From Phyllobates terribilis (Eukaryota), in contig NW_027362762.1 of assembly GCF_046119375.1 (NCBI RefSeq), positions 741,086,001 to 741,150,000 of the forward strand: a DNA stretch of 64,000 bases, given 5' to 3'. The position numbers are program-made. Shown in pieces: positions 56,601 to 59,600 of this stretch (its first letter is position 1; every line of letters begins with the position of its first letter).

Positions 56601-59600
56601 TTTGCAGCCAGAAACAGCGCCTTATCTAATGCAACTAGACGGGCTATCTGGTTGAAAACCTGGTCTGGGGATAACCAGTCAAAGAATAAATTATGCTCCA
56701 TTCCTTTTCAGGAGATAGGGTATTTGGGCCAGCATTAGACGACATCTTACAAAAAGCATCTGATAAAAACAAAGGGTTTCCCGAGGATAAGCCTCATAGG
56801 TACCAGCCCTTTCGGAGAGCCCGCCCCTTGCATAAGCCAGATTATAGGGGTAAAGGAAAGTCCGGCAGATGGAGTTACCCCAAGGGGAACAGGGGCAGAG
56901 GACACCCTTTAGTTCAGCATCCGGCTCGAGGAAGCAATGACGCCATGTAGCATCGGCGTCTCTGCCCACTGCTAGGCAGAGACGTCGTCCCTCTCACCTT
57001 CCCGCTCCTGGCGCGGCGTCCTCCAGCACTCCCCTCCTCGCTGCTGCCGGTGCGCTCTCCTTCCCGGGCACTGTGCTTAGGGCGCGCACGCGCTCCCCCT
57101 CTCTTAAAGGGACCGTGCGCGCCGTCCTAAGGAGTCTCCGACCAATTGCCGGAGGACCTCCCATATATAAAGCACCTCCTCCAAAATGGAGGTGCCCGAG
57201 CAAAGTTGTTGCACAGTATATTACCTCTGCTTCAGCCCTCAGGTCCCGTTGCCAGCCTGACTTCTGTTCCAGTCCACCAGCCTGACTACTCTCCAGCCCG
57301 ACAGTCTGCCTTCCGCGCTACCCGCCAGTCTGTCTATGGGCAAGCCCGCCTGCCTACCAGGAAGCACCTGCGAGTTACCTGCCTGCTACCTGCCGTGCCT
57401 GCTAGCCTGCTCACCTGGGAGCACTCGCCTGTTACCTGCCTGTTACCTGCTAACCTACCTGGAGGCTCTTCCGTCACATGCCGTGACCACCTGCCTGTCA
57501 GCCTAGAGACTGCAGCCTGCTTGCCGTCACTTGCCATGACCACCTGCTAGCCTACCTGGAGGTTCTGCCGTCACATGCCGTGACCACCTGCCTGTCAGCC
57601 TAGAGACTACAGCCTGCTTGCCGTCACTTGCCTTGACCACCTGCTAGCCTACCTGGAGGCTCCCGCTGTCACTTGCCGTGACCACCTACCCGCTTGCCAA
57701 GAGACTTCTTCCGTCACTTACCGTGACCACCCGTCAGCTAACCCAGAGACTTCTGCCTGCTTGTCGTGCCCACCTGCTATACTGGTCAGTCTCAGTCATC
57801 TGACCCGTGGGAGCCACCTGCTCTCTACAAGGTCGTCCCCAGAGTAGCACCTGGTCCCTCTACTCGGATCCTCCCTGGTCACAGAGTCGTTTGCCGCCGT
57901 CCGACCAGGGTCGGTTCGGGTAGATACTTAGTTACGCCCCTCTGGGTCCCTCCTTGCACCGCGGCACAGAGGTTCCACCACCCGAACCCGTTAGTTTGCT
58001 CGGGCCATGGAACCCGGTGGCACCCAAGCTCCTTCTCTCTCTGACCTATTCCTCGAAGTCTCCCGTCAGAGATCCCAACAGGAATCCATCCTGAACCACC
58101 TGCGTAATGTCAACTCCTGCCTGGACACACTGACTGCTCCATCAGGACCTGCCTCCAGTCGCACGACTCATGCCCCGGCAGCGCCGCTGCCCATCAATAC
58201 CATGGTACCCGGTCCAGGTCCCCGGCTTTCTGCACCGCCTCGGTTTGGTGGAGACCCCGCCTTGGCTCGAGGCTTCATTAACCAGTGTACCCTGCACTTT
58301 GAACTCTTGGCACATAATCTTACCTCCGACCAGGCCAAAGTGGCCTTCATCATGTCCCATCTCACTGGGGAAGCACTGGCTTGGCTAAATCCCCTGTGAG
58401 AGAGAGGGGATCCCCTGGTATCCAACTTGTCAGCTTTCCCCACTGCTTTTCGGAAAGTCTTCGATGAACCGGGACGAAAGACCTCATCAGCCTCCTCTCT
58501 GCTACGTCTCCGCCAAGGGAGTCTCACTGTGGGCCAATATGCCATACGGTTTCGTACCCTCGCTTCTGAGCTTGCCTGGGATAACGAGGCCCTGGTGTCC
58601 ATCTTCTGGGAGGGCCTTTCCGGTCGGATTAAAGACGAACTTGCCGGTCGGGACGTTCCAACCACCCTGGATGACTTGGTGACACTAGCTACCCAGATTG
58701 ACATCCGGTTCCAGGAACGTACCAAAGAGACCACCCGTGAGAGGAGGTTTCCCCGCCTTGCTCCTACTTTCCAGAGACCTGTCTCTTCATCTGTCACTCC
58801 CCGGGTGCACTCACCCGAGCCCATGCAGATCCACCAAACCAAGATGGTCAAATCTCGCCAAGAGTCACGCCGAGCCGAGGGGAGCTGTTTCTATTGTGGC
58901 AGTTAGGAGCACCTGATTCGTTCCTGCCCGGAGAAACCGGGAAACTCCGGTGTCTAGGACCGCTCGGAGAGGTCGTCCTAGACAAAAGTAAGCCCTCTCC
59001 ATCCCTGACTCTGTCTGTCTCTATCTCCTGGGGAGAGAACCGTCACTTTGAACTCGCTCAGCTAGATTCTGGAGCTGCTGGAAATCTCATTTCCCAGTCC
59101 CTAGTAGAGAAATACCACATTCCCACCAAATCTCTGGCTGAACCATTGTCTGTCGCCTCCATGGATGGGAGAGTCCTACCGGTGACCATCCTGCTCGTCA
59201 CGGAACCCATAACCCTGCAGGTAGGAATGCTGCACTCTGAAAAGATCTTCTTCCATGTGCTACCCGGACTATCTCACTCCCTATTGCTAGGCCTACCTTG
59301 GCTCCAGACGCATGAACCCGGGTTGAACTGGCAATCTAGTGAAGTACTCCGGTGGGGTCCGGACTGCCATAGGACCTGCCTGGTTCCGGTTCGCCCGGTT
59401 CGTCCACTACCCGCTCCAGCTAATTTACCCGGTCTTCCGGCTCCTTACTGGCCCTATGCAGACGTCTTCGGTAAAAAGGAGGCAGAGACATTACCACCTC
59501 ATAGGCCATATGATTGCCTGATCGACTTGGTACCTGGCGCCACTCCACCCTGTGGGCGTATTTATCCGTTGTCTGCGGCTGAAACCCGGGCCATGTCAGA

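Follow-up and report, generated by a model that had tools for sequence, protein, structure and literature searches.

A decayed chromovirus copy from an abundant Phyllobates terribilis family with a primer-binding site that complements the first ten bases predicted for its RNA

The Ty3/gypsy element at positions 56946-63225 of the window (the whole 64,000-nt stretch of Phyllobates terribilis DNA analysed here) is a decayed copy of an abundant chromovirus whose primer-binding site (PBS) complements the predicted first ten bases of the element's RNA, and the family likely primes reverse transcription in the manner of Tf1, using a self-primer whose length is likely 10 nt. As judged from comparison of sequences, priming independent of tRNA is well supported, because the complementarity keeps a fixed register in 50 of 50 relatives, 11 pairs of R and PBS types covary, and TGG follows the long terminal repeat (LTR) in 0/50. 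According to the accessible parts of the literature consulted, self-priming has been shown only in fission yeast and is merely predicted for vertebrate chromoviruses; the P. terribilis genome adds strong comparative support, with about 23,000 junctions and 11 covarying types, and offers a sharp, testable number, namely a cut after nt 10, not 11.

The element is flanked on both sides by the target-site duplication (TSD) CGCCA, and its LTRs, 1048 nt (5') and 1031 nt (3') in length, differ at 41 mismatched aligned sites (K2P 0.041; ~4% divergence). Its features, with R1 denoting the predicted first base of the RNA, are as follows.

56941..56945, + strand: left TSD, CGCCA
56946..57993, + strand: 5' LTR, starting with TG and without the terminal CA; 41 mismatches against the 3' LTR
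57142-46, + strand: CCAAT
57164..57171, + strand: TATA box TATATAAA, by sequence; A/T-rich at -31..-25 in relatives
57172..57195, + strand: 8-bp hairpin between TATA and R, closing on R1-R2; family-specific, z -6.3
57194..57203, + strand: predicted RNA 5' end and putative self-primer GCCCGAGCAA, 10 nt
57204: base 11 (A), which pairs only in the subfamily of the window copy
57445..57754, + strand: tandem arrays of 97-, 53- and 45-nt units, lengthening the primer-PBS loop
57971..57977, + strand: GGTTCCA, U5 arm of the predicted U5/leader stem
57994..57995, + strand: 2-nt spacer GT from LTR end to PBS, likely the overhang that integrase removes
57996..58005, + strand: primer-binding site TTGCTCGGGC, complement of R1-10
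58008..58014, + strand: TGGAACC, leader arm of the predicted U5/leader stem, overlapping the gag ATG
58007..58957, + strand: gag, with DUF4939, Retrotrans_gag/Ty3_capsid and a CCHC knuckle (Pfam)
58894..61971, + strand: pol frame, with protease, RT, RNase H, integrase and SH3_Tf2-1 (Pfam)
61940..62161, + strand: chromodomain (PF00385, E 1.2e-8), in a frame separate from pol in the window copy
62180..62194, + strand: polypurine tract, then TAC ahead of the 3' LTR
62195..63225, + strand: 3' LTR, TG...CA, 1031 nt; the R start at 62443 reads GCCTGAGCAAA
63226..63230, + strand: right TSD, CGCCA

TG...CA LTRs, a TSD, a polypurine tract and the order gag then PR-RT-RH-IN mark the element as Ty3/gypsy, and its closest PDB match is the Ty3 RT (E 4e-81). 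The chromodomain at the integrase C-terminus, though frameshifted from pol here, marks it as a chromovirus. A -1 overlap of gag and pol and a CCHC gag characterize the window family, while related families have one long ORF; G GGA AAC at 58939-45 is a candidate -1 frameshift site. The sequence-only reading had described the self-priming signature as intact, a word that does not suit this copy: the terminal CA of the 5' LTR is gone, the repeat reading GTTA|GT where the 3' LTR ends GTTACA (CA is present in 27 of the 29 nearest sisters), two stops (58397-99 and 58904-06) break gag, and a frameshift near 61938 disrupts pol. Because it is decayed, the window copy is a poor test object. In four young sister copies, the pol frame stays open across the polypurine tract and stops only within the 3' LTR, some 65-80 codons into U3. 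The chromovirus itself interrupts another retroelement, presumably DIRS-like, of which an ORF with a LAP2alpha domain lies to the left (55700-56945) and a frameshifted RT piece to the right (63226-64000). Elsewhere in the window, at 49970-54300, several diverged direct repeats of 330-390 nt have long inverted partners and likely represent a satellite or a non-autonomous DNA element.

Within the window copy, GCCCGAGCAAA at 57194-57204 begins 30 nt past the first T of the TATA box (57164) and has its exact reverse complement, TTTGCTCGGGC, at 57995-58005; the motif positions, the exact complementarity and the 30-nt offset are all as the sequence-only reading had given them, and the loop that it had put at about 800 nt measures 790 nt. 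This 11-mer is the longest complement to the post-LTR region across the entire element, with a chance probability, given the base composition of the LTR, of ~1.8e-4 anywhere in the LTR and of 1.7e-6 inside a 10-nt start window. The 3' LTR version reads GCCTGAGCAAA, not GCCCGAGCAAA.

Relatives were drawn from 100 whole-element stretches picked by junction, DUF4939 and chromodomain searches, which together with the window made 101. LTR ends were set from LTR-LTR alignment and a 5-bp TSD, independently of the PBS; TSD-defined LTR pairs were obtained in 52 of the 101, and the removal of two mis-defined loci, L133 and L271 (nested pair; truncated TSD), left n=50. In the tally R was chosen as the best match to the PBS, so that the TSD-defined register and the TATA position serve as the independent checks. 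R1 pairs with the base at LTR end +12 in 50/50 TSD-defined relatives, and 6-7 of the 7 bases at -31..-25 are A/T in 45/50. Ten perfect Watson-Crick pairs are found in 46/50, with one defect in each of the remaining 4, and every one of positions 1-10 is Watson-Crick in 49 or 50 of 50. Among the 50 relatives and 14 partial loci there are 11 distinct perfect R/PBS 10-mer pairs, from GCCCGAGCAA/TTGCTCGGGC through GCTTCTGAAT/ATTCAGAAGC, which differ at 7 of the 10 positions; when R and PBS are paired across families (n=110), the mean is 6.7 and 10 is never reached. A quick tree of copies from this genome places the types on different RT clades; it covered 60 of 64 labelled loci, the other 4 being excluded for short RT, and L168, probably a nested element, forms a long branch in it. 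Many copies are close kin, and the number of independent R/PBS changes is near the count of types, not of copies. Covariation across subfamilies, put forward earlier as a check, is thus borne out by 11 covarying 10-mer pairs in one register in 50/50.

That the complement arose by chance or as an artefact of decay has a negligible probability. The decayed state of the window copy and auxiliary stems near shuffle level would suit such an origin, but a 10-mer is expected at ~1e-3 per LTR, as against 46/50 perfect 10-mers at a single fixed register, and this together with the covariation refutes it. Single-copy variants at PBS position 10 are compensated in R at 0 of the 11 family loci in which R was located (4 of the 11 being neighbouring, near-identical copies), as expected of mutation after insertion, and are therefore uninformative on templating. 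Two further loci, L132 and L213, share the repeated junction GTGACA GT CTGGAGACGC CATGGA with no matching R upstream, and L132 is also without a pol match.

The abundance of the window family, a Ty3/gypsy chromovirus, is very high: there are 23,491 instances of the junction pattern GTNACA-N10-GCCATGGA genome-wide, compared with 23 for the reversed control, and GT TTGCTCGGGC is present in 78 of the first 100 junctions listed. The two bases between the LTR CA and the PBS (n=50) are GT in 22, GG in 14, GA in 9, AG in 4 and GC in 1, and the left LTR edge reads TAC|TG or TAA|TG, with TAC/TAA in 50/50. The primer-PBS loop spans 380-1053 nt among the 50 relatives and ~190 nt in two partial loci.

Searches with PF03732 led to a different set of elements. 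The top 150 matches all lie on small unplaced contigs (C2755 and higher), and the gag proteins from the 30 loci fetched (L091-L120) resemble those of plant Athila/Tat elements. Plant contamination of the assembly is possible, and these plant-like elements on small contigs were set aside as relatives.

The absence of a TGG-type tRNA PBS, claimed from the window copy, extends to the relatives, with TGG within 6 nt of the LTR end in 0/50. Priming by a host tRNA, half-tRNA or other small RNA, with the match to R as a by-product, is accordingly very improbable: besides the lack of TGG after the LTR, each of the 11 PBS types matches the R of the element that carries it. What such an explanation can draw on is that R1-5 (GCCCG/GCCTG) is the same as the 5' end of the retrieved tRNA-Lys(UUU) genes, although this likeness goes no further than 5 nt and the PBS has the sense of the tRNA-Lys 3' strand instead of being its complement. 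It can also draw on the scope of the tRNA screen, an RF00005 search with 63 scored matches from which 30 loci were fetched, all tRNA-Lys(UUU); the screen covered tRNA-Lys genes only. The fetched loci (L240-L269) form tandem tRNA-Lys(UUU) arrays with a period of ~1.05 kb on contig C1. Their acceptor stem (GCCCG/GCCTG...CGGGC/CAGGC) resembles the ends of the R:PBS helix, and one gene variant contains TGCTCGGGC.

The length of the 11-nt complement had been equated with that of the Tf1 self-primer, an equation that the relatives do not support: pair 11 is Watson-Crick in only 7 of the 50, wobble in 14 and a mismatch in 29, with U.U in the dominant young subfamily and C.A in another family. Across the genome, U stands at R11, opposite U, in 41,116 LTRs (the dominant subfamily), and A, as in the window copy, in 3,692 within the G/A context searched (the GCAAAAG subfamily falls outside the latter count). 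If an 11-nt primer templated the PBS, A would be expected to accumulate opposite R11. Family PBSs with a non-T base opposite R11 number 106 genome-wide, compared with 23,491 for the looser junction pattern; among 53 listed TTGCTCGGGC cases the non-T bases are A in 12, G in 9 (3 of them tandem) and C in 32, an ordinary mutation-like spectrum with no conversion to A. Because pair 11 is unconserved and its opposite base unconverted, the layout conserved among the relatives is LTR-CA + 2 nt + 10-nt PBS, and the sequences indicate that the self-primer of the family is likely 10 nt rather than 11 nt.

An exact Tf1 arrangement, with an 11-nt primer whose pair 11 tolerates wobble or mismatch and a single extra base after the LTR CA, is unlikely, although it is the least improbable of the alternatives. 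It would be in keeping with the 11 Watson-Crick pairs of the window subfamily, with Watson-Crick or G.U at pair 11 in several families, and with the accessible account of Tf1 in which the cut falls between nt 11 and 12 (PMC7175516). It accords poorly with U.U at pair 11 in the most abundant, young subfamily, with C.A in another, and with an unconverted base opposite R11. A mismatched 3' primer end is, moreover, a poor substrate for RT. Since pair 11 can still form, as Watson-Crick or wobble, in most family types, a loosely ended 11-nt primer may be compatible with the data, as may a cut within the helix.

For the favoured 10-nt self-primer, the following course can be proposed. By analogy with Tf1, Pol II transcription would start at G57194 (R1), and R1-10 would fold back onto the PBS across a loop of 0.4-1.0 kb, aided by the U5/leader stem. 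RNase H would then cut after nt 10 and free the primer, and extension by RT would copy the 2-nt spacer, followed by U5 and R. The 2-nt spacer would represent a retrovirus-like overhang, which integrase would remove to leave the CA end; retroviruses such as HIV and SIV likewise have two additional bases past the CA of U5. On the left, the overhang may amount to 2 or 3 nt, as a pyrimidine sits between the purine tract and the 2 nt before U3. The PBS would track R probably in part through plus-strand copying of the primer; this would account for the freedom of pair 11 and for the absence, at the family level, of G.U from pairs 1-10. This templating step is uncertain, given that Ty1/Ty3, in the accessible part of the source, do not derive their PBS from the primer (PMC5371799).

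It is improbable that the primer derives from the 3'-terminal copy of R, or from another RNA molecule, rather than from the capped 5' end. The same 10-mer stands in both LTRs, and the R 11-mers of the two LTRs are identical in 41/50; in addition, the window family has no poly(A) hexamer downstream of R (none of 12 kinds between R and the LTR end in 11/11 window-family LTRs, 57194-57993 included), and a GU-rich run follows the 10-mer. Among the rows listed for assembled contigs of uncertain kind from five sequencing runs there is no start or end site and no loose poly(A) end, and such contigs are uninformative on where transcription starts. Nevertheless, the complement begins sharply at ~TATA+30 and pairing stops short of U3, though a 3' copy has U3 attached, and the TATATAAGG of the dominant subfamily is no poly(A) hexamer. 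In the window family, a strong hairpin also hides R1-R2 when U3 is present. This TATA-R1 hairpin is very stable (z about -6) and could form only in the 3' RNA copy, where it would hide those two bases; as a general feature it was rejected, being strong in 4/18 loci, all of the window family.

The arms of the claimed U5/leader stem are in place and both TGGAACC and GGTTCC are retained in 25/29 sisters, with stems of other letters in other families, so that the stem is plausible as a predicted structure; in the window copy it is not above shuffles (p 0.17), and p<0.05 is reached in 6/22 loci. The arms of the claimed U5 hairpin likewise lie where they had been placed (GGTTCGGGT at 57913-21 and ACCCGAACC at 57980-88; p 0.03 in the window copy), but the hairpin is specific to the copy or subfamily and unconserved; it was rejected as a family feature, with p>0.05 in 9/9 other loci and the exact 3' arm in 1/29 sisters. 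By their coordinates, the U5 hairpin and the U5/leader stem cross and would together form a pseudoknot. The second flanking helix of the three-duplex "pretzel" is unconserved among loci, and an Rfam scan of 56900-58200 gave 3 weak matches, all below gathering. In equilibrium folding of the whole leader, the R:PBS helix has a probability of 0.05 in the window copy and of <=0.11 in 7/9 loci, and is favoured in 2/9. Since the model is pseudoknot-free and the span long (0.3-1 kb), the folding evidence is weak, and the low modelled probability counts only weakly against the helix.

There is an even chance that these vertebrate chromoviruses combine a 10-nt self-primer with retrovirus-like 2-nt overhangs, where Tf1 has a flush 11-nt primer, and that their PBS is a plus-strand copy of the primer. 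Templating would then make R and PBS coevolve, the primer length would be legible from tens of thousands of copies, and loops from ~0.2 to >1 kb would be tolerated. Self-priming as such is the expected state for the Tf1/sushi clade in the accessible literature, and no new kind of system is involved. No paper on self-priming in amphibian elements was found in the literature searched, from which most subscription papers were out of reach. The new part is the genome-wide argument for a 10-nt primer and a 2-nt spacer, a modest advance; Butler et al. 2001 may already show the 10+2 layout.

Known systems provide several points of comparison, given here as they appear in the available portions of the papers cited. 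Self-priming is described as common to Tf1/sushi elements from fungi to vertebrates, in agreement with the earlier statement that it is predicted for the sushi group, and Butler et al. 2001 is cited for the vertebrate "pretzel" structure (PMC6317226; bioRxiv 2022.12.06.519325; PMC4600332). Inheritance of the PBS from the primer, as proposed for the window family, is reported in HIV and SIV (PMC4549124). Amn-san chromoviruses are given as the most abundant frog LTR elements (PMC4131045). The vertebrate Tf1/sushi elements (GyDB V-clade: Sushi-ichi, Amn-ichi/ni/san) have in common with the window family a chromodomain, a -1 gag/pol overlap and predicted self-priming. The LTR ends of the family, TGTA...TTACA, match in part the Sushi att motifs TGTYANR / CNTNACA; fish Sushi LTRs have AATAAA near their 3' end (PMC3601003), a hexamer absent from the window family.

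Tf1 and Tf2 of Schizosaccharomyces pombe, in which self-priming is shown, and Tj1, Tosmo1-3 and Tcry1, in which it is predicted, resemble the window family, as far as their accessible descriptions go, in being chromoviruses with no tRNA PBS, an RNA 5' end that complements the PBS, and a predicted flanking U5/leader stem. In Tf1, the PBS is bound by the first 11 RNA bases, which RNase H cleaves off (PMC7175516; PMC5341516), and in about half of the cDNA the LTR is followed immediately by a 3'-terminal copy of the PBS (PMC11042837). This 11-nt pairing to a PBS abutting the LTR (PMC11042837; PMC7175516) differs from the 10-bp helix after a 2-nt spacer in the window family. The LTRs of Tf1/Tf2 are 358/349 bp (PMC7175516), compared with 0.55-1.3 kb in the relatives, with their repeat-filled loop of 380-1053 nt; the CCHC gag knuckle and the -1 gag/pol overlap of the window family are missing from the fission-yeast elements in the accessible text (bioRxiv 2022.12.06.519325). 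An 11-nt primer as in Tf1 thus finds no support in the relatives, a result that speaks against identity with Tf1 but not against a Tf1-like way of working. In retroviruses the primer is a host tRNA with a CCA end, whereas the window family would use its own RNA. With Tf1/sushi elements the family shares a PBS that is not tRNA-complementary (TGG in 0/50; the half-tRNA screen covering tRNA-Lys only) and that covaries as the complement of the predicted RNA 5' end.
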